Part shown: in pieces, positions 46 through 48,927 of the stretch
How positions within the stretch are numbered: position 1 is the stretch's first letter
Layout of the letters: each line of letters opens with the position of its first letter
NCBI GenBank assembly: GCA_000404785.1
Contig: ASNI01000006.1
Span: 3,037 to 67,036 of the forward strand
Reading direction: 5' to 3'
Length of the DNA stretch: 64,000 bases
Source of the DNA: Cloacimonetes bacterium SCGC AAA252-N17
GTDB lineage: Bacteria; Cloacimonadota; Cloacimonadia; JGIOTU-2
Notes under the pieces: generated by a model
What the model was told of the DNA's origin: nothing
Databases searched by the model: none
Seen by the model: only the letters and a program-made list of their open reading frames with translations
Program-made: the position numbers and the translations under genes

Positions 46-474
46 ATGACTATTAATAAAGAAAAAATTATAACTCTGATTGGCGAAGCAAGAAACGCAT
101 TAGGTCAACTCGCTCGATATGAGGATGTATCTCTTGATGCATTACTTAAAGATGATGAGAAATTAGGAAATATAAAATATCAACTTATCATTCTGATAGA
201 AGCTTGTATCGATATGTGTGCCCATATTACAGCGAAATCTCTTAACGTCGCTCCGGAAAGTTATTCCCATTGTTTTCAATTGTTGCAAGAAAATAATTTT
301 ATTGATGAAGGATTAGCTGATAAAATGTCTGAGATGGCAAAATTCAGAAATCTTTTGGTGCATTTGTATTGGAAAGTTGATAATATACGTGTTATTGAAA
401 TAGCTCAAACTAAAATGGATATATGCAATGAATTTATTCATTCGATTGTTAGAATCGTGAAACGTGAGTCATGA
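46..474 (+). CDS. HepT-like ribonuclease toxin (DUF86/HEPN)
   Basis: HEPN R-x4-H-x-Y motif RNLLVHLY; the MNT partner probably lies upstream of the window. Confidence 0.9.
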   Translation: MTINKEKIITLIGEARNALGQLARYEDVSLDALLKDDEKLGNIKYQLIILIEACIDMCAHITAKSLNVAPESYSHCFQLLQENNFIDEGLADKMSEMAKFRNLLVHLYWKVDNIRVIEIAQTKMDICNEFIHSIVRIVKRES

Positions 475-566
475 AAAGTGAAATGTGAATTTCACAGAAA
501 ATTAGTTGTCACTCTGATTCACTAGCTTAAGGATTGGGTATCGGAAATCTAATAAATTTAGAGTTT

Positions 567-836
567 ATGAATAATCCGGAAATTAAACAATTCATAAGAG
601 AAAACAGCTATCTTTTCTGGTGGATCAGGGAAGATGCAAAAGCGGAAATTAGCTTAAATCTATTGATAGAAACAATCTTGAATTATGGTGATATAGAAAG
701 CATAAAAAATTTATTTACACTTATCGGAATAAAAAAAGTTGCTGAAATTTTCTATCAGAGTATTCATCGAAAACGTGTTAACTATCATCCACGAACTATT
801 AATTTTTTTACACTTTATTTTACACGAAATGCATAA
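567..836 (+). CDS. Small putative antitoxin of the AbiEii-type nucleotidyltransferase pair
   Basis: About 89 aa from ATG 567; YLFWW..ETILNYG pattern; stop overlaps the start of the AbiEii-type gene. Confidence 0.6.
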   Translation: MNNPEIKQFIRENSYLFWWIREDAKAEISLNLLIETILNYGDIESIKNLFTLIGIKKVAEIFYQSIHRKRVNYHPRTINFFTLYFTRNA

Positions 837-1446
837 AGAGATACTTACAAAAAATCAACAGAAATTACTGCCCTTTGTTAAGGATTTTTCAAATAACTAT
901 TATCTTGTTGGTGGAACAGCAGTCGCATTATATATAGGACACCGAAGATCTATAGATTTTGACCTTTTTTCAGATAAAGCAATTGATAGAGGTGATATCA
1001 AACGTTTGATTGAACATAATGATTTATCAATCCAGAAGACTATATTCGAAGCTCATGATCAGCTTCATTTAATTATTGAAGACGTGAAATTTACATTTAT
1101 GCAATTTCCCTTTAAGATTGAAGCGAATACGAATTTTAATACTATAATTAACTTGCCTGCATTGATCGACCTGGCAACAATGAAATCCTATGCACTTGGC
1201 GGAAGAGCAAAATGGAAAGACTATGTTGATCTGTACTTTCTTCTTAAATTTCATTTCAATCTGGATGAGATTATTTCAAGAGCAAAAAAAATATTTTGTA
1301 ATTATTTTAATGAGAAGCTTTTTCTGGAACAGCTTTCGTATTTTGATGATATAGACGAAAGTGAAAAAATCGAGTTTATGTGTGAACCTGTAAATGATGA
1401 TGAGATCAAAAATTTCTTGATTGATGTGGCGACCCAAACTTTTTAA
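829..1446 (+). CDS. AbiEii/AbiGii-family nucleotidyltransferase toxin
   Basis: YLVGGTAVAL..HRRSIDFDLF and K..A..GRAKWKDYVDLY motifs; ATG 829 in frame with the track ORF. Confidence 0.85.
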   Translation: MHKEILTKNQQKLLPFVKDFSNNYYLVGGTAVALYIGHRRSIDFDLFSDKAIDRGDIKRLIEHNDLSIQKTIFEAHDQLHLIIEDVKFTFMQFPFKIEANTNFNTIINLPALIDLATMKSYALGGRAKWKDYVDLYFLLKFHFNLDEIISRAKKIFCNYFNEKLFLEQLSYFDDIDESEKIEFMCEPVNDDEIKNFLIDVATQTF

Positions 1447-1542
1447 TAAACGTAATCATAATGAATAAAAAAATTGTGTTTATTTATCTCATTGTTTTTA
1501 ATGCTTAATTCTTCATTATGAAAACAAATGTTGTTCTTGAAA

Positions 1543-1617
1543 AAAGTAGAAATTAAAAAGCAGAAAGCAGAAATTAAAAAGCAGAAAGTTTACCCCGTGA
1601 AATCTTTTGTTACTAAT
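1543..1617. repeat. Heptamer array (GCAGAAA-type) plus left arm of a palindromic REP-like element
   Basis: gtagaaattaaaaagcagaaagcagaaattaaaaagcagaaagttt followed by ccccgtgaaat (1593-1603); near-identical context at 9655-9740. Confidence 0.7.
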
Positions 1618-1619
1618 TA

Positions 1620-3169
1620 GTCGACCCTGAAAAACTCTGTTTTTGTGCATTAGATTATTTACATTTTCATTACATTTAAGCATAAGATTTACAATATGAA
1701 TTGAGATATGGGTCAGATTGTATAATTTTAACATAATTTTCCAAGAAATTGAGCATTTTTTTGATAAAAACAGTAAAGACAAAAAAAGCAGACGCAATTC
1801 GCCTATAGATCATCCGTAAATTATATCCACAGGCTGAGAATACTACATTTAATGAATCTCCCTCTTTACCTTTAAGATAGTTGCGATCAAGACGATGTTC
1901 GCCTTTCATATGTCCAATATCCGCTTCAATGACGCTACGCCGATTATACCACCTCCGCTGTGAACGTGTAAGACGCTTTCTACTTCTTCCTACAATATGA
2001 ATCTCTGCTTCACCTTCATAATCATGCTTCCGATACCCAAGATCTACATACACATCTTCCAGGTTGCCAACCGAACGCACATTGCTCTTCGCTTGATGTA
2101 AAGTCTCTTGTAAAGTATGACCATCATAAGGATTCCCATGAAAAGCTACTGCCGACAATATAAAACCTTCTTTAGACGTTCCCGTAAATCCAACCTTGTT
2201 GCCAAATTCATAACGCTTATGTGCCTTCCCTTTGCAGATACATTCCACATGTGGCTCATGAACACTATAAAGTTTATGCTTACTCGTTTTCGTTTGACTC
2301 AAACCCTTATCCACTAACTGTCTTAATGCCTCGAAATCTTTATCCATAAGAAGTTCCGGTGTCGCTTTCCGAAGAATATCTCGATACAATCTCCCAAGTG
2401 AGGTCCTTAACTTACTCTTAACGCTCATGGCTCGTTTCATCTGTTTCGCATGCACATAACCGCCATGTCTACGAAGCAAAGTCTTACCTGATCTCTCATA
2501 GGTCTGTTTCATTGGAATATCATGTGATTTCGCTTTTCTAACAAGATGTTGGATTAATCTGTAATACAACTTTACATCTGTAGGAAAGGTGATGTTCTTC
2601 TCCTGTACTGTTGTATCAACATTTACCTTCTTGATGCTCTGCTTCCTTATCGTTTTCGTCTTTAAACCCGACTTGATCGTTGTCTCAAGAAGCTCTTGTA
2701 AATGTGAATCTTTAAGTCGATTACGCCACTTGGTCATGCTGGTAGGATGAATCGGGAACTCTGTCTGAAAATATTCTTCTCCGCAGAAATACTGCCAGTA
2801 GGGGTTCTCGATCCATTGCTCCACAAGAACTTCATCACTCAGGTTTTTCATATACTTCAGGAAATGAAGACCCACCATTAAACGCACCGATTTCGCAGGA
2901 CGCCCCATATCTTCTGAATACAATACCTTGAATGATTCATTAAGATCATCCCAAGATATACTATTCGCTAATCTACAGAGCGGATGTGGAAGATTTAGAA
3001 TATTTGGAAGATACATTTGAAACATATTTGGTTCATTTACTTTATTTTTTATCATCATAAACTCTCAGACTTTTAAGCATTTCTGCACCTTTTTTGGGAG
3101 TTTATTACGTACTAAAATCCTCGTAGTCAAGTTATTTATCAAGGCCTTAACAACTTTTTCAGGGGGAAC
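1620..3169 (-). mobile_element. IS5-family insertion sequence
   Basis: Imperfect terminal inverted repeats gtcgaccctgaaaaa / tttttcagggggaac; TA on both flanks (1618-1619, 3170-3171) as probable target duplication; single transposase inside. Confidence 0.8.
1676..3058 (-). CDS. IS5-family DDE transposase
   Basis: GRP..RLMVGL..LSDE..W.ENPYWQYFCG N-terminal domain; VDTTVQEK, D.GYR, RRSVIE..IGHMK DDE segments. Confidence 0.92.
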   Translation of the reverse strand: MMIKNKVNEPNMFQMYLPNILNLPHPLCRLANSISWDDLNESFKVLYSEDMGRPAKSVRLMVGLHFLKYMKNLSDEVLVEQWIENPYWQYFCGEEYFQTEFPIHPTSMTKWRNRLKDSHLQELLETTIKSGLKTKTIRKQSIKKVNVDTTVQEKNITFPTDVKLYYRLIQHLVRKAKSHDIPMKQTYERSGKTLLRRHGGYVHAKQMKRAMSVKSKLRTSLGRLYRDILRKATPELLMDKDFEALRQLVDKGLSQTKTSKHKLYSVHEPHVECICKGKAHKRYEFGNKVGFTGTSKEGFILSAVAFHGNPYDGHTLQETLHQAKSNVRSVGNLEDVYVDLGYRKHDYEGEAEIHIVGRSRKRLTRSQRRWYNRRSVIEADIGHMKGEHRLDRNYLKGKEGDSLNVVFSACGYNLRMIYRRIASAFFVFTVFIKKMLNFLENYVKIIQSDPYLNSYCKSYA

Positions 3170-3174
3170 TACTT

Positions 3175-3300
3175 ATCCCGTTAAATCTCATCTTTTTGTA
3201 TTTAACTGGGACCTGTCCCGTTAAATCTCATCTTTTTGTATTTAACTGGGACCTGTCCCGTTAAATCTGTTTTATTTATTTAACTGGGATTTCACTGGGG
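3175..3300. repeat. Three tandem 40-bp hairpin repeats inside an outer palindromic arm
   Basis: cccgttaaat..atttaactggg-acctgt units starting at 3177, 3217 and 3257; closes with atttcactgggg (3289-3300). Confidence 0.9.
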
Positions 3301-3325
3301 CAGAAAGATAAAAGATTAAAAAGAA

Positions 3326-3721
3326 ATGAAAATTGACATAGATAGAATTAGCAAAGAACTTTTTAATACTATTCCAGAAGCTGAATTTGCATATATTTTT
3401 GGATCTACACAAGATGGGAATATAGGCAAAAACTCAGATATTGATATTGCATTTTATTTTTCTAAAAATATTGAAATATCTGAAACTTTAATATTAAAAA
3501 TTTTTAAAAGTTTCGAAAAAATCTATCCTAACCTAACCTTGGATATTTGTAATTTAAATACTGCTTCTCTGATCTTACGGTTCGAAGCTTTAAGGGGAAC
3601 ATTGTTATTTGTAAGAGATAGTTTTAAAGATAAGTTTGCAGAATTTTTTTCTCTGACAGCTCGTGAATACGAAGATGAAATGTATAGAAGAAAACTTCAG
3701 TTGAAGTATAGAGGTTATTAA
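3326..3721 (+). CDS. Minimal nucleotidyltransferase (MntA-type antitoxin)
   Basis: FGS-x10-DIDIA motif; stop overlaps the HepT start. Confidence 0.88.
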   Translation: MKIDIDRISKELFNTIPEAEFAYIFGSTQDGNIGKNSDIDIAFYFSKNIEISETLILKIFKSFEKIYPNLTLDICNLNTASLILRFEALRGTLLFVRDSFKDKFAEFFSLTAREYEDEMYRRKLQLKYRGY

Positions 3722-4137
3722 TGGAATATAATGGTGTAATTGAAAATAAAATTCGATTACTTGAAAATAAAATCGAAGAAATCAGATCGTGGGATATTAC
3801 TTCTTTAAATAAAATTAAAAAGAGTACTCTAATTAGAAATGCTGTTGAGCGAGCATTGCAAGTATCAATTGAAATTATGTTGGATATAGCTGAAAGAATC
3901 TTGGCTTTAGAAAATTGCAAACCCACCATGAGTTCATCTGAAGCTATTGCAAAATTGGAAGATTTAGGCATAATAAAAGAATCTGAAAAATATATTGATA
4001 TGATAAGATTTCGCAATTTTATTGTTCATCGTTATGAATATGTTGATATTAATATTCTCTTTACTATTGTTACTAAAAAACTGCATTATTTTGAATATTA
4101 TGTTGATGAAATAAGAAATGCGATTTCAATTGGTTAA
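3721..4137 (+). CDS. HepT-like ribonuclease toxin (DUF86)
   Basis: RNFIVHRY HEPN motif; ERALQVSIEIMLDI helix. Confidence 0.9.
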   Translation: MEYNGVIENKIRLLENKIEEIRSWDITSLNKIKKSTLIRNAVERALQVSIEIMLDIAERILALENCKPTMSSSEAIAKLEDLGIIKESEKYIDMIRFRNFIVHRYEYVDINILFTIVTKKLHYFEYYVDEIRNAISIG

Positions 4138-4177
4138 TACGCCATGACAAGACGCCGTGATAAGAAAGAAGAAAGAT

Positions 4178-4300
4178 AAACCACCCGTCTTCGTTACACT
4201 TCAGTCTTTGCTACGCTACGCCCAGACAGGACGCCGAGGCAGGCGAAATACACCAGTCTTCGCTACGATTCGCCGAGGCAGGCGAAATAACACGAAAAAT
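4178..4300. repeat. CACGAAA-type array interrupted by nested CCGTCTTCG/CAGTCTTCG palindromic units
   Basis: aaccac[ccgtcttcg..gcagg]cgaaatacac[cagtcttcg..gcagg]cgaaataacacgaaaaa. Confidence 0.65.
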
Positions 4301-4394
4301 TAAAGAAATTGAATAAAGAAAAAAGAATCTCCCAAAAACAAGTTGTCATTCATCCGTCTTCGTTGCACTACGCCATGATATGAAAGCAAAAAGT

Positions 4395-4580
4395 TTACCC
4401 CGTGAAATACGAAAGTATATTTCACAGGGTGAACCCCTTGAAATCTGTTACTATTTATCCCGTTAAATCTCATCTTTTTGTATTTAACTGGGACCTGTCC
4501 CGTTAAATTTGTTTTATTTATTTAACTGGGACCTGTCCCGTTAAATCTGTTTTATTTATTTAACTGGGATTTAACTGGGG
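4395..4580. repeat. REP-like hairpin plus three tandem cccgttaaat..atttaactggg units
   Basis: Near-identical to the block at 3175-3300; preceded by ccccgtgaaat..atttcacagggtg. Confidence 0.88.
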
Positions 4581-4600
4581 AAGAAAGATAAAAAGAAAAA

Positions 4601-5346
4601 ATGAATCCATTTCAATATGGCAATATTGTATCAGGAGATTTCTTTTATGACCGCAAGGAAGAGTTGTTGCGCATTAAGCAAACACTGAAGGGGGGAAACA
4701 ACTTAATGCTTTATGCTCCCAGGCGCTACGGGAAATCTTCTTTGGTAGCAAAGGCTATGAACACCATCAGAATGTATCATATTTGTTTCTCGGAAGCCGG
4801 ACACATCTTTTGAAAAATATGTTTAACAACAAAAACAGGGCTTTTTATAATGCAGCAATGCTTATGAATATTAGAGCAATGGATACTGAACATTCTATTA
4901 ATTTTTTATCTGATCGTTTTGCAAAAGATAATATTGACATATTAAGAAACACTGCCTTATACCTTATTAAAAAAGTTGATAGTATTCCTTATTATATTCA
5001 ATTTGTAGCAGCAGAGATCTGGCAACAGATTATTAACAATAAACAAAAAATCACTAATTACCACGTTGATAAAGCATTAGAACATATTATTGATTTAAAA
5101 TCTGATTATTATTGGGAATTAACAAATAAACAAACAAATTATAGAAAAAAAGTTTTGTATGCCATCAGTAAATCTGTTGAAGAGTTGTTTTCAAAAAAAA
5201 CAACAAATGATTATAATCTCGGACCTGTCTCAACAACTCAAAAAGCTGTTAAATCTTTTATTAATGAGGGCATTATAGAACGTTTTAATAATCAATACAA
5301 ATTTTCCGACCCTATCTATAAATTGTTTTTAATCAAAAATTTATGA
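4601..5346 (+). pseudogene. AAA/archaeal-ATPase-family protein with internal deletion and frameshift
   Basis: NPF.YG..V..FYDRKEEL and Walker A APRRYGKSSL in one frame; at about 4765 the match switches frame to HQNVSYLFLGSRTHLL; the Walker B region is missing. Confidence 0.75.
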
Positions 5347-5387
5347 TTATACCTAAAGGCGTAACGCTCACGGACGTAGTCAGGGGA

Positions 5388-5459
5388 AAAGCAACCCAGT
5401 TCACCCCGTTAAATCCCTTCAGGATCCCGATATATCGGGATATTTAACAGGGTGAAATA
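5388..5459. repeat. 72-bp palindromic repeat, copy 1
   Basis: caccccgttaaat..cccgatatatcggg..atttaacagggtg; differs from 6208-6279 at 2 positions. Confidence 0.9.
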
Positions 5460-5541
5460 TAAAAATAAAGCCATTTCACCCATGTGTAATAACAGATAAA
5501 AGAGATTACACCCCGATTAAATAAAGGTGAAAAAGGAAAAT

Positions 5542-5838
5542 ATGAATTTATATGATATAATTAACTTCATAAAAAATAATAAAAAATTTCTAAAAAAACA
5601 ATATGGGGTTGAAAAAATTGGGATTTTCGGCAGTTATGTTAAAAATAATATTAAAGATGACAGTGATATAGATATTGCGATAGAAATGGCTAAAGAGAGT
5701 AAAACCCTTCATAATTTTTTGGAACTCAAAAGGTATTTAGAAAAGAATCTACAAAGGGAAGTTGACTTAGGTATTGAATCAAATTTAAAAAAAGCTGTTA
5801 AAAAAAAAATAAAAAGTGAAATTATATATGCCTACTAA
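5542..5838 (+). CDS. Minimal nucleotidyltransferase (MntA-type antitoxin)
   Basis: YGVEKIGIFGSY..DSDIDI; ATG 5542 follows an AAGGA SD-like sequence (the track uses GTG 5527). Confidence 0.9.
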   Translation: MNLYDIINFIKNNKKFLKKQYGVEKIGIFGSYVKNNIKDDSDIDIAIEMAKESKTLHNFLELKRYLEKNLQREVDLGIESNLKKAVKKKIKSEIIYAY

Positions 5839-6163
5839 AGATCGACTATACCTCGAAGATATCATCGCATCAATAGAAGCGATAAAAATATATACTAAAG
5901 ATATAGAATATAAAGAATTTGTAAAAGACCGCAAAACACATTCTGCAACAATAAGAGAATTAGAAATTGTTGGTGAAGCAGTAAGCAAGCTGTCTGAAAA
6001 TATAAAAAATAAAGCCCCTGAGGTTCATTGGAGAGATATTAAGGATTTACGAAACCTCCTAATTCATGAATATTTTGGTGTAGACCTTGAAATCTTATGG
6101 AATATTGTAAATAATGATATTCCAATACTCCATAAAGCGATAAAAACTATTTTAAGTGATTAA
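5828..6163 (+). CDS. HepT-like ribonuclease toxin (DUF86)
   Basis: YLEDI..IE, ELEIVGEA, W..IKDLRNLLIHEYFGVD. Confidence 0.92.
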   Translation: MPTKDRLYLEDIIASIEAIKIYTKDIEYKEFVKDRKTHSATIRELEIVGEAVSKLSENIKNKAPEVHWRDIKDLRNLLIHEYFGVDLEILWNIVNNDIPILHKAIKTILSD

Positions 6164-6207
6164 GATTTTTGCGGAATGACATTAGTGTTTCAAAAGACCA
6201 AAGACTT

Positions 6208-6279
6208 AAAGCAACCCAGTTCACCCCGTTAAATCCCTTCGGGATCTCGATATATCGGGATATTTAACAGGGTGAAATA
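6208..6279. repeat. 72-bp palindromic repeat, copy 2
   Basis: Direct repeat of 5388-5459 at an offset of 820 bp. Confidence 0.9.
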
Positions 6280-6294
6280 AAAGAAAAAGAAGAT

Positions 6295-6765
6295 TCCACC
6301 CCGATTAACCCGGTGAAATAAAAGACAGATTTCACAGGTTAAAAATAAAAGAAAGAATTTAATGGGGTAAACAGGGCAGGCCGAGAACACCGAATAACAC
6401 AGAAAAGGCTGAGATGATTTATAAAAAAGTAATTGTCATTCTGAATCCGCCAGCCGGCGGAGAAGAATCTCCTAAAAGTAATTGTCATCCCAGTTGAATA
6501 GAAAAGAAAGATTCAACGGGATAAATTCTGAAGCACATTCGCCTTGCTCAGTATAAACTCCGCGAAGTTTACAATCCCGATTTATCGGGGAATCTCGCAA
6601 GAAGAACGTTAATCAATCCTTCTGAGAGATCCTTCCCGTCTTTATTTCACTTCAGTCTTCTCCGCCAGCTGGCGGATACGCCCAGACAGGACGCCGTGAC
6701 AGGTCCGTCTTCGTTGCACTTCGCCGTGACAGGCGCTCACTTAGTTCACTCGAGGATGACAAAGA
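6295..6765. repeat. Composite nested REP-like array (TTGTCATTCTG..GAAGAATCTC / GAGATCCTTC..AGGATGACAA with inserted hairpins)
   Basis: Same units as those around 52480-52773 and at 55870-56170. Confidence 0.8.
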
Positions 6766-6800
6766 AAAAAGAAATTAGAAAACGGTTAAAATGTAAAACA

Positions 6801-7190
6801 ATGAAAAAAGATATCATAAACATAATAAAAGAAATGCTATTTGCAAGAAAGGAAATTATTGCCGCATTTATCTACGGCTCATTCCTTAATACCGAAGATT
6901 ACGATGATATTGATGTTGGGGTATTTACAAATTGTGCATTTCAAGGTTTAGAAAAACCGGATTATGAATTTGAATTAGAGCAATTATTATCAAAGAAACT
7001 AACAGGTAGCAAAATCGATCTTAGAGTAATTGATGATGCTCCGGATAAATTTTTATATAATGTTTTCAAGGGTTGCTATCTATTTTCTAAAGACGAAAAA
7101 ATTGAAAAAATAATAGAGCATGTAATACAAAAAAGCATGGATCAACAATATTATCAAATCCAATATGTGCAACAAGCTTATGGAGTTTAA
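6801..7190 (+). CDS. Minimal nucleotidyltransferase (orphan MNT)
   Basis: IYGSF..DDIDVGV; the track N-terminal extension from 6696 is repeat-derived; the overlapping downstream frame stops after MEFN. Confidence 0.8.
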   Translation: MKKDIINIIKEMLFARKEIIAAFIYGSFLNTEDYDDIDVGVFTNCAFQGLEKPDYEFELEQLLSKKLTGSKIDLRVIDDAPDKFLYNVFKGCYLFSKDEKIEKIIEHVIQKSMDQQYYQIQYVQQAYGV

Positions 7191-7209
7191 TTAATGATAG
7201 ATAAACAAC

Positions 7210-7395
7210 ATGAAAAGAATAATTTTTTTAACTAAGTTAAAAGAACAAAAAAAACAGGATTTGAAATTCAGACGTTCAATGAGTTCGGAAGAGCGCTTGA
7301 GCGAAGTAGAAAGTCTCAGAATTCAAGCTGGTAAATTTTTATATGAATATCCAACAAGATTTCGAAGAATTATTAGAATTGCTCATAGAGCATAA
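7210..7395 (+). CDS. Small basic hypothetical protein, putative partner of the downstream nucleotidyltransferase
   Basis: 61 aa containing MSSEERL..VESLR; overlaps the next gene. Confidence 0.55.
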   Translation: MKRIIFLTKLKEQKKQDLKFRRSMSSEERLSEVESLRIQAGKFLYEYPTRFRRIIRIAHRA

Positions 7396-7789
7396 GGTAA
7401 AATACCTTATCGTTGGGGGATATGCTGTTGCTTTCCATGGATATCCGAGATTTACAAATGATATTGATATTTTTTATGAAATGAGTGAAGAAAATGTAAA
7501 AAAAATTACCGATTGCCTGGTGGATTTCGGATTTTCTAACTCAGAAGTTAACGGGAAACTATTTTTGGAAAAAGGTAATATCATTGTTATTGGAGTTGAA
7601 CCGCTGAGAGTGGATTTTATTAACGATATTGATGGAGTAGAGTTTGCAGCTGCTTGGGAAAATAGAATCAAGGGTAAATATGGTTCTGTTGAAGTAAATT
7701 TTATTTCAAAAACTGATCTGATAAAGAACAAATCAAAAACTAAAAGATCTGAAGATAAACTTGATGTAGAAAAGCTTACAGAAATTTGA
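7343..7789 (+). CDS. Nucleotidyltransferase-fold protein (putative toxin)
   Basis: YLIVGGYAVAFHGYPRFTNDIDIF; C-terminal DLIKNK..KR.ED..DVE. Confidence 0.8.
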   Translation: MNIQQDFEELLELLIEHKVKYLIVGGYAVAFHGYPRFTNDIDIFYEMSEENVKKITDCLVDFGFSNSEVNGKLFLEKGNIIVIGVEPLRVDFINDIDGVEFAAAWENRIKGKYGSVEVNFISKTDLIKNKSKTKRSEDKLDVEKLTEI

Positions 7790-7816
7790 AAGAAATATAA
7801 GGTTGTTACGAAGATA

Positions 7817-8146
7817 ATGCTGCATACCGGTCTCACTTCAGATAAATGGAAAACTTTTAGTATTGATAAGCAGATACTTATGATCGCTAATGAAATGAAT
7901 CGGGCAAAGAATTGGATTGAGAAGAAGGATTTTGAGAAGGTTTTGCATTGCTATGAGCGCGCTTTTGAGCTTATTGATCTCACTGTTGATTCGTCAAAGA
8001 ATAGAAGTTTGATTAATGAGTTAATGAGGGTTCGTGAACTTCTTGCAACAGAATACATTCATAGAGCTGATAATTCCGAGCAGAATATGAAAATATTTAA
8101 AGTTTTGCTTTCCTTAAATTTAGAAAGTTATAATATCTATAACTAA
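7817..8146 (+). CDS. Hypothetical all-helical protein
   Basis: 109-aa ORF (QILMIANEMNRA..YERAFELIDLT); stop overlaps the MNT start. Confidence 0.65.
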   Translation: MLHTGLTSDKWKTFSIDKQILMIANEMNRAKNWIEKKDFEKVLHCYERAFELIDLTVDSSKNRSLINELMRVRELLATEYIHRADNSEQNMKIFKVLLSLNLESYNIYN

Positions 8147-8415
8147 TGAAAAGAGAAAAAATACTACATACACTAAAAGATTTTAAAGAAAATAATACTG
8201 ATAAATATGGTATTTTGACTTTAGGAATTTTCGGCTCTTACGCAAGAGGAGAAGCTAAATCTGACAGTGATCTTGATATTGTAGTTGAAATTTCAAATGT
8301 AGATATGTTTTTATTGGTTCATATGAAAGATGATTTAGAAAAAATCTTTAATACCAAAATAGATATTGTGGTTAGAAAAGGGGAAAGAAGAGGTTCATAT
8401 TACGAATTAATATGA
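8146..8415 (+). CDS. Minimal nucleotidyltransferase, C-terminus apparently altered
   Basis: YGI..LGIFGSYARGEA..DSDLDIVV. Confidence 0.8.
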   Translation: MKREKILHTLKDFKENNTDKYGILTLGIFGSYARGEAKSDSDLDIVVEISNVDMFLLVHMKDDLEKIFNTKIDIVVRKGERRGSYYELI

Positions 8416-8416
8416 T

Positions 8417-8449
8417 ATGCCAACTTTATGCCAACTTTATGCCAACTTT
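8417..8449. repeat. 11-bp tandem repeat x3
   Basis: atgccaacttt repeated three times. Confidence 0.9.
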
Positions 8450-8605
8450 GAAATAGAGCTATAGGGAGCACAAGAAGGGTTCATTAAATTTCAGAGGTAA
8501 TACTAAACAAAGTTTCAAATAAAACAGCGAGTTTAGAACTTAAAAATTTGGAGAAAGAATTAAGAGTTTAATTAAAGAAAAACATGAATATGTGATGTCT
8601 AAACA

Positions 8606-8710
8606 GTTAAAACAAGGTAAAAGGGTAAAAGATAAAAGGTATCCGTCTTCATTACACTTCGCCGCGACAAGAAGGTAAAAGGTAAAAGATAAAAGGCAAA
8701 AATAAAATAA
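8606..8710 (+). repeat. AAAAGGT/AAAAGAT heptamer array with an inserted CCGTCTTC hairpin
   Basis: aaagggt aaaagat aaaaggt [atccgtcttc..gacaag] aaggt aaaaggt aaaagat aaaaggc, directly before ATG 8711. Confidence 0.75.
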
Positions 8711-8890
8711 ATGAAAAAATACGAAATTGACCTTAACGAAAGATTAATTCAATTCGCAATAAATACTTTCAAATTCCTGAAATCATTACCAAAAGATAAA
8801 GAATATGATGTTTTTACCCTGTGAACCCCCCGACGAGAGGGGGAGAAGTGTAACTTCTGTTTCACTGGGTGAAGATATAAACTATTAATA
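8711..8890 (+). pseudogene. Four-helix-bundle protein remnant disrupted by a 57-bp hairpin insertion
   Basis: MKKYEIDLNERLIQFAINTFKFLKSLPKDKEYDVF aligns with DLSERLLNF..LPHNKEYDVFRYQL of the gene at 9861; after the insert at 8816-8872 it resumes RYKL. Confidence 0.75.
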
Positions 8891-8976
8891 TCATTTATTT
8901 TAAAAATAAAGACATTATGGAAATAATTAATGTTATATTTTTTAAGCAACAATAAATGTATAAAAAAGGAGATGCG

Positions 8977-9189
8977 ATGCAAAAAATTACTTTAAATATT
9001 AAAGACGAATCAAAATTAGATATTTTTATACGGTTTCTTCGTGAAATAAGTTTCATTGAAATATCTAAAATAGAAAAATCAACAAACGATTTTGAAACAA
9101 AAAGTTTTAATTATTTGTTTGGTATTTGGAAAAACCGCTCCATTTCATTATCCGATATTAGGGAAAAAGCTTGGGGAAGGAGTCTATAA
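8977..9189 (+). CDS. Putative VapB-type antitoxin
   Basis: Short ORF ending LFGIWK..IREKAWGR; SD AAGGAG; directly abuts the PIN gene. Confidence 0.7.
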   Translation: MQKITLNIKDESKLDIFIRFLREISFIEISKIEKSTNDFETKSFNYLFGIWKNRSISLSDIREKAWGRSL

Positions 9190-9564
9190 ATGGTTTTATG
9201 TGATACCAATGTTATTATTGAATTCTTCAAAGGTAATAATAAAACACTTAAAGAACTTGAGCAAATTGGTTTTGATAATATAGTTATAAGTACAATTACT
9301 GTTATGGAATTATACTATGGGGCTTTAAATAAGAAAGAATTAAGTAAGATTAAAAAATGTATTCATTCTTTAAATGTTCATCAAATTGATTCCTATATCT
9401 CAGAAATTTCAGTTGAATTGATTGAAAAGTATTCTAAGAGTCATAACCTAATGATTCCAGATGCTATTATAGCTGCGACAGCAATTTCAATTAAAATGGA
9501 CCTCTATACTTACAATCTCAAAGATTTCTCTTTCATTAAAGAACTTAAGCTATATAATTTATAA
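9190..9564 (+). CDS. vapC: VapC PIN-domain ribonuclease toxin
   Basis: VLCDTNVII, TVMELYYG, IPDAIIAATA, TYNLKDF. Confidence 0.92.
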   Translation: MVLCDTNVIIEFFKGNNKTLKELEQIGFDNIVISTITVMELYYGALNKKELSKIKKCIHSLNVHQIDSYISEISVELIEKYSKSHNLMIPDAIIAATAISIKMDLYTYNLKDFSFIKELKLYNL

Positions 9565-9607
9565 GAGTTAACAAATTGAGGATGCAATTGAACCCATGGA
9601 AAATTCT

Positions 9608-9742
9608 AAAGATAAAAGGGAAGACAAAAGATAAAAGAAAAAAGACGAAAGATTAAAAGCAGAAAGTAGAAATTGTAAAGCAGAAAGTTTACCCCGTGAA
9701 ATCTTTTGTTACTATTTCACCGGGGTAGAAAGCAGAAAGGTA
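9608..9742 (+). repeat. AAAGAT/GCAGAAA heptamer array with an inserted ccccgtgaaat..atttcaccgggg hairpin
   Basis: Repeat read directly from the sequence; same architecture as 1543-1617. Confidence 0.75.
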
Positions 9743-9860
9743 TAATATGATAGAAAAATTAGATATTGACGATCATATAAAGAATAATCCTTTATTATAT
9801 AAATCATTTTTTTAGCATTAGAAATTATCAAATTGTATAAATATTTAACTGAAGAAAAGC

Positions 9861-10262
9861 ATGGAATACAAGATTAAAGACGAAAGACAAAAGAGCAAAG
9901 AAAAGAAGATTAATCGTGATCTTTCAGAAAGACTTCTTAATTTCGTTGTAAAGACTATGCAATTTCTACGATCACTTCCACATAACAAAGAGTACGATGT
10001 CTTTAGGTATCAACTATCAAAATCATCTTCGTCCATAGGCGCCAACTACGAGGAATCTCAAGCATGCACTGAAAATGAATTCAAGCAGCGAATAGCCATC
10101 TGTCTTCGTGAAGCTCGTGAAACAAATTATTGGTACAGAGTAATTGATAAACTGGACATTGGTGATAGCGAACAAAGAAAATATTTATTACAAGAATCCT
10201 ATGAATTAAAGTTAATATTTGGATCAATATACTCCAAATGCTACAAGAAGGCAAAAATATGA
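9861..10262 (+). CDS. Four-helix-bundle protein (23S rRNA IVS protein/Avd-like family)
   Basis: QLSKSSSSIGANYEE, F...IAICLREARETNYW. Confidence 0.9.
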   Translation: MEYKIKDERQKSKEKKINRDLSERLLNFVVKTMQFLRSLPHNKEYDVFRYQLSKSSSSIGANYEESQACTENEFKQRIAICLREARETNYWYRVIDKLDIGDSEQRKYLLQESYELKLIFGSIYSKCYKKAKI

Positions 10263-11800
10263 ATAATAAAATTTTAATCTTTATTCTTTGCTCTTTAATC
10301 TTTTTTACTATAACTTTCTGCTCAAACACAGGACCTCAGACAGGAACATTATCCGGCACTATTAATTTAGAAGGTCAATCCGACCACTCCGGAATAATTA
10401 TAGGCATTTACAAACTTGCCGAGTTAGATCCCGACATCGTCGAAGCTAATCAGAAATGGCCCCACATTGGCGTAATAATTAATCAGATGACTGAATTCGA
10501 CCACCGCTTCGGCACATTAATTAAAACCGGAGAAACCGATGCATCCGGTTACTTTGAAATTAAAGACATCCCAACGGGTGTTTATAATGTAGTTGCAATA
10601 AAAGACTCTTTCGGTTTTCGTTATATTTACAATGTACAAATAAATGATGGAAATAATGAGCTTTCAGCAAAGAATAAAGACAAAAGATCAAAGATCAAAA
10701 GTGAAAATTCTACCGATGTCCTTAATCTTTCTTCTTTAGTCTTTGATCTTAATAATCGCACTAGCGATTTAACTCTTTTTCCCGAAACAACAATCTCCTC
10801 CGACATCTCCACCCCAACTACCTTTCTCTCCCACCATCATTACATAATTGAACAAGACATTATAGTTGATGACGAACTCATCATACAACCCGGTGCAGTT
10901 GTACGTTTGAACGAAGGCAAAGAAATAACCAGCTATGGTACCTTTAATGCAGTAGGAGAATATGAAAACTTCATCTGGTTTACCAAGAATGATGGATTTT
11001 CCGAAAACTTGAGTACAATAGAACCTGACTCAAATTATATTTGGGATAGAGTTACCCTAGAGCCATATTCACAAGCGCAGGTCCAATGGAGTAAATTCGA
11101 TTGTGCGAATATTGGATTGTTAAATCATGTGAATGGATTTGGGATTTCGGATTGTATTTTTAGTGCTAGTCAGTGTGGATTTAAAGCTGTGGATGTTGAT
11201 TCGATGTTTTGTAGTAATTTGTTGTGTGAAGCGATTACAAATGAAACTGAAGGTGGGATTTATTTTGTAAATTGTAATTCAGGTAAAATTAATAATAACC
11301 TGTTAGTAAAAAACTCTACAGGTATAAAAGTAAAGGATTTATCTAATCCCTTAATGAAGAATAATTACTTTACTCAAAATGAATTTGGTGCAGAATTATG
11401 GAGTAGTAATTCTTCTTTTATCAATAATGAATTTTCATACAATTCTAACGGTTTAAGGATTTGTGGAACCACTTCTCCCACAATATATCTTAATAACATT
11501 CAATCGGATATCGGAATATATATAGGATTTAACGATACCTATCCAAACGCAAATCCTGAAATTAATTTTAACAATTTAATCAATTGCGGCTATACGATTT
11601 ATGAAACGTTTTTTAATAGTAATGTTATAAATGCAGAGAATAACTATTTTGGCACTACTGATCCACTCATTATTGAAGAATTAATTCATGATAAAAATGA
11701 TCTATCATCAACGGCACCATATTATAACACTTATGGAATAATTAATTATATTCCATTTTTATTATCGGAATATCCAAATGCAGGAATACAGGATGAATAA
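10259..11800 (+). CDS. Secreted or lipoprotein with carboxypeptidase-regulatory-like domain and right-handed parallel beta-helix
   Basis: Signal peptide ending TFC; GTLSGTINLEG..G.YNVVA; repeated N..(I/F)..N..GI turns; C-terminal NAENNYFG. Confidence 0.65.
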   Translation: MNNKILIFILCSLIFFTITFCSNTGPQTGTLSGTINLEGQSDHSGIIIGIYKLAELDPDIVEANQKWPHIGVIINQMTEFDHRFGTLIKTGETDASGYFEIKDIPTGVYNVVAIKDSFGFRYIYNVQINDGNNELSAKNKDKRSKIKSENSTDVLNLSSLVFDLNNRTSDLTLFPETTISSDISTPTTFLSHHHYIIEQDIIVDDELIIQPGAVVRLNEGKEITSYGTFNAVGEYENFIWFTKNDGFSENLSTIEPDSNYIWDRVTLEPYSQAQVQWSKFDCANIGLLNHVNGFGISDCIFSASQCGFKAVDVDSMFCSNLLCEAITNETEGGIYFVNCNSGKINNNLLVKNSTGIKVKDLSNPLMKNNYFTQNEFGAELWSSNSSFINNEFSYNSNGLRICGTTSPTIYLNNIQSDIGIYIGFNDTYPNANPEINFNNLINCGYTIYETFFNSNVINAENNYFGTTDPLIIEELIHDKNDLSSTAPYYNTYGIINYIPFLLSEYPNAGIQDE

Positions 11801-46202: not shown

Positions 46203-46311
46203 TCTGTGGTATATAGAAAATTGGACTTTCTGGCTTGATGTTAAAATTATTTTTATGACAGTATTTAGCAGGCAATCTAAATTAAATGCGTTTTAATATA
46301 TTTTAGTTTGG

Positions 46312-46353
46312 GGGTTTAGGAGTTTAGAGGTTTAGAGGGTTAGAGGTTTAGAA
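46312..46353 (+). repeat. Octamer array (AGGTTTAG), left flank of a four-helix-bundle gene
   Basis: gggtttag gagtttag aggtttag agggttag aggtttag. Confidence 0.85.
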
Positions 46354-46716
46354 GTGCATACATATTCATTTGAAAAACTTTAAGTATGGAAATTAGCAAA
46401 AGATTTTGTTATTAAAATTTACAGGATAACAGAGAAATTTCCAAAATCAGAAAAATTTGGAATAGTAGATCAAATAAGACGTTCTTCAGTTTCTGTACCT
46501 ACCAATTTATCCGAGGGAAGTGGAAGGCAAACAGGAAGAGATAAAGCACATTTCACACAAATTGCTTATGGCAGCATAATGGAGTGCTTGAATCTATTAA
46601 TTATTTCTCGTGATTTGGAGTATATTTCTCAAGATGAATTAGATGATTTAAGATCTGATATCGAAAGAATTACAAAGAAACTTTCAAATTTACGCCTATC
46701 ACAACTAAACAACTAA
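46354..46716 (+). pseudogene. Four-helix-bundle protein with in-frame TAA at 46381-46383 (not in the ORF track)
   Basis: MHTYSFEKL*VWKLAK..FPKSEKFGIVDQIRRSSVSVPTNLSEGSGR..F.QIAYGSIME. Confidence 0.85.
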
Positions 46717-46719: not shown

Positions 46720-46860
46720 AAGTTTAGAAGGTTAGGTGTGTAGAGTTTTATGTGTTTATTGGGTTAGAAGGTTATGGATTTTTTCTAAACTTCTAAACTT
46801 TTTTCCTAAACTTCTAAACTGTTTTTTCTAAACTTCTAAACTTTTTTTCTAAACTTCTAT
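46720..46860. repeat. Direct then inverted octamer arrays (GTTTAGAA / TTCTAAAC) forming a long potential hairpin
   Basis: agtttagaaggttagg.. followed by about seven ctaaact units. Confidence 0.85.
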
Positions 46861-48427: not shown

Positions 48428-48520
48428 ATGGGGGAAACGTTGAGAGAAAGAGACGTTGTGAAGGAGAGACTGGGGGACTTGGTGAAGGGGAGTTTGGACT
48501 AATAGGCGGTAGGGTGATAA
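48428..48520 (+). repeat. G-rich octamer array (NNAGAGAC/NNGGTGAA), left flank
   Basis: gttgagag aaagagac gttgtgaa ggagagac tgggggac ttggtgaa. Confidence 0.7.
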
Positions 48521-48538: not shown

Positions 48539-48910
48539 ATGAAAATAAGAACGCATAAAGATCTTGTAGTTTATCAATTAGCTTTTGATGCAGCAATGGA
48601 AATATTTGAAATTACAAAATTATTTCCTAAAGAAGAACGATATTCTTTAGTTGATCAAATGCGCAGAAGTTCTCGTTCTGTAGCAGCAAATATTGCAGAA
48701 GCTTTTAGGAAAAGAAAGTATCCAAAAGCTTTTATATCAAAATTATCAGATAGCGAATCTGAAGCTGCAGAAACTCAGGTGTGGTTAGAATTTACTTTGA
48801 AATGCAGATATATTGATGAAATTACATTTGATGATTTGTTTAATAATTATGATCATATAATTGGCAAACTTGTAAATATGAGTAGAGAGCCACAGAATTG
48901 GAGCATATGA
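48539..48910 (+). CDS. Four-helix-bundle protein
   Basis: FPKEERYSLVDQMRRSSRSVAANIAEAFRKR..KLSDSESEAAETQVW. Confidence 0.92.
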   Translation: MKIRTHKDLVVYQLAFDAAMEIFEITKLFPKEERYSLVDQMRRSSRSVAANIAEAFRKRKYPKAFISKLSDSESEAAETQVWLEFTLKCRYIDEITFDDLFNNYDHIIGKLVNMSREPQNWSI

Positions 48911-48927
48911 AATTTCAAGGCAGTCAA

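Follow-up and report, generated by a model that had tools for sequence, protein, structure and literature searches.

A lipoprotein signal peptide in Cloacimonadota that probably derives from the arm of a palindromic gene cassette

Introduction

Can repeat DNA supply the signal that directs a protein to be exported? A locus in Cloacimonetes bacterium SCGC AAA252-N17 raises this question. Within a stretch of 64,000 nucleotides (64 kb; contig ASNI01000006.1, hereafter the window), a gene for a small four-helix protein runs into a gene for a beta-helix lipoprotein, and the heptamer array near the start of one gene is the inverse of that near the start of the other. An earlier note on this DNA placed one array at the 5′ end of the four-helix gene and its inverse at 10273–10305, read as the hydrophobic core of the downstream signal peptide (SP). 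It also pointed to an exact 13-mer common to both arrays and proposed that repeat DNA had been recruited as an export signal or had replaced the native one. Here we follow up these observations at the locus, across orthologous loci and around related four-helix genes in other phyla.

Results

Heptamer arrays open two overlapping genes

Five features define the core of the locus.

9861–10262, + strand: four-helix-bundle gene (23S rRNA intervening-sequence protein/S23p family), 133 aa
9870–9908, + strand: proximal 5′ arm of the cassette, a purine-rich heptamer array (Tandem Repeats Finder (TRF) period 7 at 9876–9899)
10259–11800, + strand: beta-helix lipoprotein gene, 513 aa (Pfam, ORF list and AF2)
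10272–10322, + strand: 3′ arm of the cassette, a pyrimidine-rich heptamer array plus tail, residues 5–21 of the predicted SP (ILIFILCSLIFFTITFC)
10319–10321, + strand: lipobox Cys codon (Cys21), the right-hand border of the apparently cassette-derived segment, where homology among orthologues starts

The four-helix protein passes both family profiles, scoring 45.6 bits against PF05635 (cut-off 33.8) and 61.5 bits against TIGR02436 (cut-off 24; residues 23–125 covered), and it is identical across 6 single-cell genomes. Its array (aagatta aagacga aagacaa aagagca aagaaaag, 9870–9908) makes up codons 4–16 of the ORF and is translated as YKIKDERQKSKEKK, a Lys/Glu/Asp/Arg-rich N-terminal extension that the closest homologues do not have. 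Alignment reveals a 10-residue insertion relative to the proteins of two related loci, L026 (72% identical) and L028 (62%), and the array-coded extension falls outside the TIGR02436 match, which begins at residue 23.

The two genes overlap in the tetranucleotide ATGA, the four-helix stop TGA lying at 10260–10262 and the beta-helix ATG at 10259. Gene callers start the lipoprotein at ATG 10238; ATG 10259 has an AAGAAGG Shine–Dalgarno-like site 9–10 nt upstream, and we regard the called start as misplaced and prefer 10259. From there, the right array (10273–10307) is translated as ILIFILCSLIFF within MNNKILIFILCSLIFFTITFC, and TRF reports period 7 in this array as in the left one. Among the three frames of the right arm, only that of the beta-helix gene is both open and hydrophobic (mean Kyte–Doolittle 2.44, versus 0.03 with three stops and 0.68). 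The predicted SP comprises a positively charged MNNK followed by the 16-residue ILIFILCSLIFFTITF (mean Kyte–Doolittle 2.84), giving the n-region and the h-region of 7–22 hydrophobic residues expected of an SPase II lipoprotein signal peptide. Its lipobox is non-canonical: ahead of Cys21, which is invariant in 34 homologues, positions −3 to −1 read I-T-F versus the canonical L-[AS]-[GA]. The array-coded segment is predicted to direct export and may direct lipidation. Letters and translation therefore uphold the earlier placement of the first array; that of its inverse is also borne out, but the arm extends to about 10322, and frame, translation and hydrophobicity agree with its reading as the core of a predicted SP.

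The units of the right array may bear traces of their coding role. In order, they are TTTAATC, TTTATTC, TTTGCTC, TTTAATC and TTTTTTA. Kept in register, a perfect (TTTAATC)5 would be translated as MNNKILIFNL*SLIFN; the real array reads MNNKILIFILCSLIFF. The three deviating units are exactly those in which the consensus would put TAA or AAT in frame, and these departures do away with one stop codon and two Asn codons, no more and no fewer. The 5′ arm mirrors the AA-to-GC change of unit 3, as the shared exact 13-mer shows.

Beyond the SP, Pfam assigns the lipoprotein a CarboxypepD_reg-like N-domain and a NosD/parallel beta-helix domain. An AF2 model (pLDDT 88.5, pTM 0.86) shows residues 4–19 as an isolated helix, apart from the folded domains. 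A PDB fold search returned weak matches only (best E = 1.5e-3), to alginate epimerases, PL6 lyases and tailspikes. We found no promoter-like sites above chance and no terminator-like site between the two genes.

The arms complement each other across the four-helix gene

Two further features lie upstream of the four-helix gene.

9601–9666, + strand: distal purine-rich heptamer array of AAGAyAA units (TRF period 7 at 9621–9652)
9656–9740, + strand: three AAAGCAGAAAG(T/G) repeats (family D3) around a hairpin

The 13-mer, AAAGAGCAAAGAA, was correctly described: it occurs in the 64 kb only at 9890–9902 (+) and 10284–10296 (−), two matches where dinucleotide shuffles predict 0.01. It sits within 20 nt of 90% complementarity (9883–9902/10284–10303; pair I7). 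A looser pair extends over 47 nt at 72% (9853–9899/10273–10319; I1). The longest complement of the right arm is the distal array, where 9626–9658 matches 10272–10304 over 33 nt at 85% (I2) and TRF adds a period-22 row over 9621–9666. Further on, a hairpin (9690–9728, ccccgtgaaat...atttcaccgggg) is set among the AAAGCAGAAAG(T/G) repeats, the last of which, with the bases that follow, complements the distal end of the right arm. Pairs I16 (9679–9689 versus 10312–10322, 11/11) and I5 (9731–9754 versus 10299–10322, 24 nt, 79%) reach the same end. On this sequence evidence, the four-helix gene is cargo in the loop of a palindromic cassette.

Folding placed the arms together in the minimum free energy (MFE) and centroid structures of both transcript versions. 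The right arm pairs with the distal array in both structures of 9590–10335, and with the proximal left arm in 9845–10335. Whole-transcript fold energies were not better than those of shuffles in either version (z = −0.28 and −0.50), and the arm duplex of this cassette surpassed composition-matched shuffles by no more than a small margin (z = −1.2). Comparing sense with antisense duplex energies as a test of G-U wobble gave no asymmetry (Wilcoxon p = 0.54), so nothing marks sense RNA over DNA as the level at which complementarity matters.

Signal peptides differ between orthologues according to the resident cassette

A query with the single lipoprotein gave no related loci, and we therefore used an alignment query to collect orthologues. 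The resulting set covers about 35 related Cloacimonadota species, 18 with an upstream four-helix gene and 17 without. The protein is conserved from the lipobox Cys on and the SP itself is not: in the alignment of 34 homologues, all sequence N-terminal to the Cys is non-homologous, and homology with L007, L011 and L044 begins at TGCTCAAACAC. Comparing N-termini as the earlier note had suggested, we found significant lag-7 periodicity of SP DNA in 15 of 18 loci with a cassette versus 3 of 17 without (p = 0.0014); ordinary SPs are present in 14 of the 17 cassette-free orthologues. When the 90 nt that precede the Cys were searched for their best reverse-complement partner, most cassette loci had it immediately 5′ of their own four-helix gene; the partner score averages 20.4 with a close upstream cassette versus 13.2 without (Mann–Whitney p = 8e-5). 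The units are locus-specific: AAAAGTA in L047 (32/32), AGTGAAA in L041, AATGAAT in L007 and L044, TGAATTT in L011 and L015, and ATGTAAA in L029.

Close comparisons locate the borders of the exchanged segment. L007, which has the same synteny, is 97.7% identical up to window position 8629; beyond it, both the cassette and the SP are different ones, and homology returns with the Cys codon. Among seven strains, 9561–10330 is invariant (100% identity), with substitutions starting at 10331. In L011, downstream of a four-helix gene, what is left of an SP and about 17 mature codons ends in a stop; next comes a second cassette, and its 3′ arm serves the full-length gene as SP. The remnant is a displaced, older 5′ end of the lipoprotein gene. 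Three unrelated four-helix subfamilies occupy the site upstream of the lipoprotein gene, and in at least 9 of 18 loci the four-helix stop overlaps or abuts the lipoprotein start. Several contigs begin at or near the SP.

The direction of change can be read from the deepest branches. Deep-branching cassette-free orthologues have ordinary SPs (polarity taken from a rough neighbour-joining (NJ) tree of one domain), which implies that the lipoprotein family already had an export signal. Of the two alternatives in the earlier note, replacement of a native SP thus appears the better one. The earlier note also reasoned that orthologues with the same heptamer-periodic signal DNA but no element would refute its proposal. 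In form, such cases exist: L031, L036 and L039 have no four-helix gene and carry SP DNA that is a (TTTACAT)n array. The same array is, however, found in cassette-bearing L012 and L029, and since the three loci nest among cassette-bearing lineages, the pattern reads as gene lost, arm kept. More broadly, the arm is retained where the four-helix gene is broken (L007, L012, L029; in each, a GIY-YIG insertion interrupts it and the lipoprotein gene is whole) or gone (L025, L031, L036, L039). The sister pair L025 (no cassette) and L026 (cassette) has homologous SP DNA and can be read instead as insertion beside a pre-existing array. L038 has a cassette whose arm stops short of the SP.

A gene-less copy of the arms lies inside the lipoprotein gene

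Both arm types also occur together within the lipoprotein gene itself.

10669–10750, + strand: in-frame mini-palindrome with both arm types and no four-helix gene, encoding KNKDKRSKIKSENSTDVLNLSSLVFDL in the inter-domain linker

Positions 10669–10701 are 82% identical to the left arm (D1) and 10722–10750 are 86% identical to the right arm (D2), and a repeat search of the window returned the two halves as a compact inverted pair (I9). The insert is missing from 9 of 34 orthologues. It corresponds to residues 137–167, where pLDDT falls below 50 between two confident domains. The linker unit matches the locus's own SP-arm unit in the window and in L007, L012, L014, L015 and L028. The earlier note had overlooked both this copy and the distal array at 9626–9658.

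Inverted heptamer arrays accompany PF05635 genes in many phyla

For a multi-phylum set, we used one four-helix subfamily as query, an all-family alignment being too diverse. Around Cloacimonadota four-helix genes, cognate arms scored 18.5 versus 11.6 for non-cognate arms (p = 5e-8); around 78 PF05635 genes from many phyla, the scores were 18.6 versus 8.9 (p = 3e-38). Within-locus controls scored 8.8–11.8 (p ≤ 2e-8), and 33 of 39 arms had period 7. These inverted 7-nt arrays flank PF05635 genes regardless of neighbour, mostly in intergenic DNA, making the array a property of the cassette. The cassette studied here is flanked by a PIN toxin gene and the lipoprotein gene; others in the window (48539–48910 and 50667–51038) precede unrelated genes, and L011 and L017 contain tandem pile-ups.

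Several element classes were considered for this architecture. We rejected a transposon of the MITE/TIR type because non-cognate arms are unlike one another (the 11.6 and 8.9 above) and no inverted repeat is common to the copies. The four-helix protein shares its superfamily with bAvd, the accessory variability determinant of diversity-generating retroelements (DGRs). We rejected DGR Avd identity because no RVT family or reverse transcriptase lies within ±5 kb and the protein does not match the NF033474 Avd equivalog; weak PF22296 and NF033474 matches belong to the window's other four-helix genes. Searching the 64-kb window with Rfam yielded no families and hence no rRNA, and PADLOC found no defence-system match for the four-helix and GIY-YIG proteins. 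The searchable literature yielded no account of inverted heptamer arrays flanking four-helix genes outside rRNA, of a PF05635 cassette class of this kind or of repeat-derived signal peptides.

Discussion

We conclude, with a probability of about 0.8, that the 3′ arm of a cassette built like an ORF-bearing 23S rRNA intervening sequence (IVS) became the SP of this lipoprotein, replacing an ordinary one. Such a cassette holds a PF05635/S23p ORF in a loop closed by complementary arms of tandem ~7-nt units. Here its purine-rich 5′ arm has been taken into frame as the charged N-terminal tail of the four-helix protein, and its pyrimidine-rich 3′ arm as the hydrophobic h-region of the predicted lipoprotein SP. 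In crown Cloacimonadota, at least three four-helix subfamilies are represented among the cassettes directly upstream of the lipoprotein gene, and the resident cassette has overwritten the stretch from start codon to Cys with its own 3′ arm. SPs consequently differ wholly even among close orthologues, although the mature part is conserved. Most codons in a T/C-rich array specify Phe, Leu, Ile, Ser and Thr, and such an array would therefore be pre-adapted as an h-region; selection would then need only to purge stops and polar codons. Once the arm is the only export signal, it presumably cannot be lost.

The closest known relatives are the 23S rRNA IVSs of Coxiella burnetii and Leptospira, which likewise place a PF05635/S23p ORF in an inverted-repeat loop (Afseth 1995; Ralph & McClelland 1993; Warrier et al. 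2016, PMC4990558). The Coxiella IVS carries an S23p ORF, a stem that is formed by a 28-bp inverted repeat and cleaved by RNase III, and 2–4 tandem GACAGAT heptamers just 5′ of the ORF (PMC4990558). The cassette resembles it in pairing an S23p-type ORF with inverted repeats able to form a stem, and in having tandem purine-rich heptamers immediately 5′ of the ORF start, as both TRF period-7 tracts record. Another trait in common with IVSs is frequent decay of the ORF, with the palindrome persisting at the RNA level. Unlike them, the cassette sits between protein genes instead of in 23S rRNA helix 25 or 45, and its arms are heptamer arrays of 30–60 nt on both sides, both translated, the 3′ one as a predicted SP.

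Two other systems share single traits with the locus. The opa genes of Neisseria reportedly carry CTCTT coding repeats within the signal-peptide region (Stern et al. 1986). Those repeats are perfect, length-polymorphic and act as a frameshift switch. Here, too, the hydrophobic core of the SP of a surface protein is encoded by short pyrimidine-rich tandem units of non-triplet length; unlike in opa, a complementary partner and a cargo gene lie upstream. We rejected an opa-type phase-variable repeat because the units are imperfect and the seven strains are identical over 9561–10330, with no length variation seen. Rickettsia palindromic elements (RPEs) are reported to insert in frame in protein genes (Ogata et al. 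2000). They form a conserved multi-copy consensus family without an associated gene. Like an RPE, a selfish palindromic repeat here joins an ORF harmlessly outside the folded core, and 10669–10750 behaves in this way, being an in-frame palindrome absent from some orthologues and outside the folded domains. Unlike RPEs, the arms have a sequence of their own at each locus and belong to a four-helix cassette, and one of them supplies a predicted targeting signal rather than a neutral insert.

Other accounts of the locus must be weighed against domestication of a cassette arm. The four-helix protein and the arm stem could together form a switch dedicated to post-transcriptional control of the lipoprotein and of the glycan locus downstream, rather than an entrenched selfish cassette. 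Of 35 species-level loci, 18 have a four-helix gene immediately in front, and in at least 9 of these it touches or overlaps the lipoprotein gene. In the window, no terminator-like site separates the two genes, and the cassette and SP are perfectly conserved in seven strains while the mature part varies. We nevertheless consider an adaptive operon unlikely: three unrelated subfamilies have held the position, the lipoprotein gene is intact where the four-helix gene is split or absent, the other cassettes of the window serve no such neighbour, and the tandem pile-ups resemble accumulation, not design. Causality might also run the other way, with an SP-coding array or gene-less mini-palindrome at the site first and a four-helix gene landing in its loop, or with a cassette that copied its flank in inverted form, so that the left arm came from the SP. 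Arms that are copy-specific in every phylum are not what a sequence-specific transposase would yield; gene-less mini-palindromes do exist (for example, 10669–10750); and the SP DNA of cassette-free L025 shows homology to the right arm carried by its sister L026. Moreover, the GIY-YIG gene of L007 sits in the loop of a hairpin whose similar-sequence counterpart in the window (9690–9728) is empty. Against this order of events, which we judge quite improbable, stand the 14 of 17 cassette-free outgroup orthologues whose SP DNA has no 7-nt periodicity, the indifference of inverted arrays to their neighbours and the recurrence of the same arm types (NSKFKIQ..., FYILHFTFYI...) in distant orthologues.

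Slippage of a non-triplet repeat at replication, switching the lipoprotein on and off as in opa, would fit a unit length of 7, a surface-protein gene at the edge of a strain-variable polysaccharide locus, the perfect array of about 4.5 copies in L047 and the variation in heptamer copy number among Coxiella strains (PMC4990558). Yet all five units here differ or alternate and so offer little substrate for slippage, and close homologues are all in frame. Array length is identical in the seven strains and in one JGI metagenome contig that matches the flanks with a variable gap; no length variants appeared in either. We give phase variation very little credence. Composition might seem a simpler answer still, since at 31% GC in an AT-rich genome, A-rich Lys/Glu codons and T-rich SP codons would be trivially complementary, and composition-matched arm shuffles do pair almost as well energetically. 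That reading has next to no chance of being right: the exact 13-mer far exceeds expectation, both coding arrays have a period of 7 rather than 3, and the three comparisons of cognate with non-cognate arms (p = 8e-5, 5e-8 and 3e-38), with which the within-locus controls concur, rule it out.

Two wider proposals are made more cautiously. By analogy with rRNA IVSs, the arms may form a long stem around the four-helix ORF in a spanning transcript. As an RNase III substrate, this stem would sequester or sever the first ~20 lipoprotein codons, and ribosomes that translate the four-helix ORF and stop at ATGA would unwind it, so that lipoprotein synthesis would be coupled to translation of the cassette. 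We offer this tentatively, at somewhat less than an even chance; if RNase III cut within the SP codons, the lipoprotein mRNA would be destroyed, and long-term retention would then be difficult to explain unless cutting is partial or regulated. The second proposal, nearly an even bet in our estimation, is that PF05635 genes throughout Bacteria are the cargo of one class of palindromic cassette with inverted 7-nt (sometimes 8-nt) arms, the unit private to each copy but complementary between its arms. Classical rRNA IVSs would then be a special case. Cloacimonadota cassettes would exchange repeatedly at one site before a surface lipoprotein gene, their 3′ arm domesticated as an interchangeable SP, their gene-less derivatives serving as in-frame linkers and the cassette itself made undeletable.

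For practical work, assemblies break at the heptamer arrays, gene callers misplace the lipoprotein start, and signal peptides in this Cloacimonadota lineage are unusable for orthology. The border between cassette and SP also falls at the recombination boundary of a strain-variable surface glycan locus. More generally, the locus would represent a protein-targeting signal born from selfish repeat DNA, a natural case repeated across at least 15 species. It would illustrate how little stands between a T/C-rich array and an h-region, and how selfish DNA can secure its own persistence by providing something that a host gene cannot do without. With the same build of ORF and heptamer arms recurring in many phyla, the 'intervening sequence' cassette would move beyond rRNA and may provide a handle on PF05635, a very common protein family without known function.

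A cassette arm encodes a predicted lipoprotein signal peptide

The window (GC ~31%) derives from a member of the Cloacimonadota (WWE1). In it, a four-helix gene lies between two mutually complementary arms of tandem ~7-nt units, the whole of which we call a cassette, and directly precedes a beta-helix lipoprotein gene. The four-helix protein also matches TIGR02436 at 61.5 bits (cut-off 24) and is shared unchanged by six single-cell genomes, GCA_000397845 among them. Its TGA stop codon overlaps the lipoprotein ATG as ATGA.

Features of the cassette and the lipoprotein gene
9626-9658, + strand: second purine array, the longest complement of the pyrimidine arm (33 nt, 85%)
9861-10262, + strand: four-helix bundle gene, 23S-rRNA intervening sequence (IVS)/S23p family; PF05635, 45.6 bits (cut-off 33.8)
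9870-9908, + strand: left (5', purine-rich) array, period 7, coding for YKIKDERQKSKEKK
10259-11800, + strand: lipoprotein, 513 aa, start ATG 10259; CarboxypepD_reg-like N-domain and NosD/parallel-beta-helix domain
10273-10307, + strand: right (3', pyrimidine-rich) array, period 7, coding for ILIFILCSLIFF
10669-10750, + strand: gene-less in-frame copy of both arms (compact inverted pair, 10669-10701 and 10722-10750) in the inter-domain linker of the lipoprotein gene, coding for KNKDKRSKIKSENSTDVLNLSSLVFDL

An earlier note had described the two heptamer arrays, and both are real: their period of 7, their translations and their shared 13-mer were all reproduced, the latter occurring nowhere else in the window (2 matches against 0.01 expected). 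The positions it gave also held, but not the extent, as the pyrimidine arm continues to the lipobox Cys codon (10319-10321) and the second purine array and internal copy had been overlooked. Gene callers place the lipoprotein start at ATG 10238 (MLQEGKNM...); a Shine-Dalgarno-like AAGAAGG instead precedes ATG 10259.

We found that translation of the 3' arm supplies the h-region of a predicted lipoprotein signal peptide, which comprises MNNK, a 16-residue hydrophobic stretch (mean hydropathy 2.84) and a Cys invariant in 34 homologues. Only the frame in use is both open and hydrophobic; one alternative frame contains three stops (mean hydropathy 0.03), and the other is open with a hydropathy of 0.68 and three Asn. 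Had every unit followed the consensus TTTAATC in this register, the array would encode MNNKILIFNL*SLIFN; real units 2, 3 and 5 depart from it exactly where it would yield Asn, stop and Asn, respectively. Unit 3 has GC in place of AA, and the proximal 5' arm carries the matching change, which accounts for the exact 13-mer; either homogenisation between the arms or selection for pairing must therefore be at work.

Each arm is an addition to its host protein. The TIGR02436 match on the four-helix protein starts only at residue 23, and ten array-coded residues are missing from its closest relatives, at loci L026 (72% identical) and L028 (62%) of other genomes. In an AF2 model of the lipoprotein (pLDDT 88.5, pTM 0.86), residues 4-19 form a lone helix, residues 20-23 are of low confidence and the two domains (28-134 and 171-513) are modelled confidently. 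The internal mini-palindrome coincides exactly with residues 137-167, which are disordered with pLDDT < 50. This palindrome is missing in 9 of 34 orthologues, and its unit is that of the same locus's signal-peptide arm in the window and in L007, L012, L014, L015 and L028.

Signal peptides travel with cassettes

Across 68 lipoprotein homologues, conservation starts at C-(S/T)-x-T-x-P-Q-(T/S)-G; sequences N-terminal to the Cys show no relation to each other, and many are plainly repetitive, such as YALRPTPYALRPTPYAL and LYLVSCTLFLIPCTLYLVSCTLFL. The DNA compared came from 37 loci of other genomes, Cloacimonadota in almost every case, and from loci of further assemblies. A PF05635 gene lies directly upstream of the lipoprotein in 18 loci and is split by a GIY-YIG insertion in 3 of them. 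At each locus, the 90 nt preceding the Cys were scored for their best reverse-complement match; the scores averaged 20.4 with a cassette and 13.2 without (p = 8e-5), and in cassette loci the top match usually lay no more than ~90 nt 5' of the start of the four-helix gene. Arm units are locus-specific: AAAAGTA in L047 (32/32), AGTGAAA in L041, AATGAAT in L007 and L044, TGAATTT in L011 and L015, and ATGTAAA in L029.

Signal-peptide DNA had significant lag-7 periodicity in 15 of 18 cassette loci compared with 3 of 17 others; in the rest of these others, any periodicity was no more than a weak lag-6 codon signal. The three periodic loci without a cassette (L031, L036 and L039) carry a (TTTACAT)n array encoding FYILHFTFYIL, also present in cassette-bearing L012 and L029, and in a rough tree they nest within cassette-bearing lineages. 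Deep-branching orthologues have ordinary signal peptides and no cassette. The family therefore once had a native signal peptide, later replaced by cassette arms. The comparison of cassette-free N-termini called for in the earlier note thus supports the second of its alternatives, that a native signal was replaced: outgroup signal peptides are ordinary, and those at cassette loci are mostly encoded by periodic, arm-complementary DNA.

Strain comparisons revealed the same association. Strain L007 is syntenic with the window at 97.7% identity as far as 8629; beyond this break lie another cassette (AATGAAT arms) and another signal peptide, MKKTLSIIHYSLFILIIITLSFC, and homology restarts at TGCTCAAACAC, the Cys codon. 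In seven strains carrying the same cassette, 9561-10330 (arrays, four-helix gene and signal peptide) is 100% identical, with dense substitutions and indels from 10331, ten bases past the Cys codon. Given this sharp boundary, cassette and signal peptide form a single inheritance block, and the mature part belongs to the strain-variable glycan region downstream. At locus L011, a four-helix gene is followed by the leftover of a 5' end (VKKIIVLLSLIFLLLSLLILSCTSTTGISTGTLTGSVQL*), then by another cassette and finally by the full-length gene, whose signal peptide is the 3' arm of that second cassette.

Further loci display related arrangements. L002 joins a window-type cassette to a mature region strongly diverged from that of the window, and the C-terminal half of the lipoprotein and downstream polysaccharide genes vary from strain to strain (window and L001-L006). 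Tandem cassettes precede the lipoprotein gene in L011 (two, 2040-3080; an older signal peptide and ~17 mature codons are stranded between them) and L017 (four, 438-3607). Sister species L026 (2510-2590) and L025 (2940-3060) form an occupied/empty pair: the 5' arm in L026 doubles as the C-terminal tail (KEVQEKKD) of the gene upstream, and cassette-free L025 has a TTG start and signal-peptide DNA homologous to the L026 3' arm. Several public contigs (L009, L010, L012, L019 and L027) start or stop at or near the signal peptide or cassette, which suggests that the arrays break short-read assemblies.

Neighbouring elements

In L007 (2560-2860) and L029 (2470-2760), an 87-aa GIY-YIG gene in a hairpin loop (ccccgttaaat...atttaacaggg) splits the four-helix gene near a conserved S-I-G-A-N motif; an identical 3' junction begins the L012 contig (1-170). 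A similar hairpin occurs at 9690-9728 of the window, and tandem 38-40-nt repeats with a similar kind of stem (3176-3289 and 4458-4569) flank an MNT/HepT pair. This pair opens a dense toxin-antitoxin-type island (3326-9564), bordered by conserved genes on one side and the glycan locus on the other, with cassette remnants interspersed.

Genes of the toxin-antitoxin-type island
3326-4137: MNT/HepT toxin-antitoxin pair
6696-8415: several Pol-beta nucleotidyltransferases
8956-9564: small ORF and PIN toxin

Copy-specific arms flank PF05635 genes in many phyla

Among the Cloacimonadota four-helix genes compared, flanks are far more complementary within the same gene (18.5) than between different genes (11.6; p = 5e-8), and the window holds further copies.

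Further cassette copies with different units
46305-46355 / 46779-46859: arrays GGTTTAGA / TTCTAAAC
about 48440-48500 / 48925-48965: arms
50575-50640 / 51064-51133: arms

Between the GGTTTAGA and TTCTAAAC arrays is a decayed four-helix gene (46354-46716) with an in-frame TAA at codon 10 (46381-46383). A 37-codon four-helix stump (8711-8824), preceded by AAGGTAA arrays (8614-8707), sits at the L007 synteny break. A solitary pyrimidine-rich array of TTCACTC heptamers (56170-56237) adjoins no four-helix gene; just upstream of it (55880-56140) are hairpin-containing repeats of another family (ggattgtcattctg...).

We extended the flank comparison to 78 PF05635 genes from Bacteroidota, Nitrospirota, Acidobacteriota, Planctomycetota, Firmicutes, Proteobacteria and others (L049-L128). 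Cognate flanks scored 18.6 and non-cognate flanks 8.9 (p = 3e-38), with 38 of the 78 genes above the 99th percentile and within-locus controls at 8.8-11.8 (p <= 2e-8). Of 39 arms, 33 have a period of 7 and 5 a period of 8; C is scarce in the 5' arm (10% versus 22%), and the repeat unit is private to each copy across phyla. Outside Cloacimonadota, the 3' arm is occasionally an N-terminal extension of the downstream gene (L077, L080 and L062; for example, MSIHNSQLTIHNIPV... and MKKFILLFLLFLYPIPYTLTP...).

The Coxiella 23S-rRNA IVS likewise comprises an S23p ORF, a stem of 28-bp inverted repeats that RNase III cuts, and 2-4 tandem GACAGAT heptamers directly 5' of the ORF (PMC4990558). No rRNA was found in the 64-kb window, so the element lies outside the location that defines an IVS. 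From the parts in common with Coxiella we class it as an IVS-type cassette outside rRNA, with putative excision. A DGR Avd assignment was rejected (no RT nearby, no equivalog match), as was a classical TIR transposon or MITE (arm sequences not common to different copies).

Alternative explanations and proposed mechanism

The cognate versus non-cognate flank tests exclude chance or composition as the source of the arm match. Phase variation of the opa type, driven by the signal-peptide repeat, found no support here, as the repeats are imperfect and no length variants turned up. Reversed causality, in which the site served as template for the arms, deserves some weight given the L025/L026 pair and the copy-specific arms, but cassette-free outgroups lack 7-nt periodicity. 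A dedicated regulatory operon is possible, yet four-helix subfamilies turn over at the site and four-helix genes are broken while lipoprotein genes stay intact.

The 3' arm, then, took the place of an older signal peptide and persists at loci whose four-helix gene is disrupted or gone. Because T/C-rich arrays code for hydrophobic residues, little editing would be needed for them to act as signal peptides. Once an arm is the sole export signal, selection on the lipoprotein would shield it and entrench the cassette. In a cassette-spanning transcript, pairing of the arms could also build an RNase III-type stem, and the opening ~20 codons of the lipoprotein mRNA would then be masked or cleaved; since the four-helix ORF includes the proximal arm, its translation would melt the stem and bring ribosomes to the ATGA overlap. 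The arms pair in MFE and centroid folds with transcript starts at 9590 or 9845 alike. Several results speak against this RNA reading: fold z-scores of cassette transcripts were not significant, the arm duplex of the window copy barely beats composition-matched shuffles, and arm duplex energies show no sense/antisense asymmetry. By analogy with the IVS, we hold this stem-based control tentatively, at somewhat short of even odds.

Together, the finding unites features already known: a cassette of the IVS type, a signal peptide coded by repeats (compare opa) and palindromes inserted in frame (compare the Rickettsia palindromic element, RPE). Inverted heptamer arrays that surround PF05635 genes and are specific to each copy appear to be undescribed in the searchable literature, where we found no account of them; the recurrence of this pattern across many phyla is the most interesting lead.
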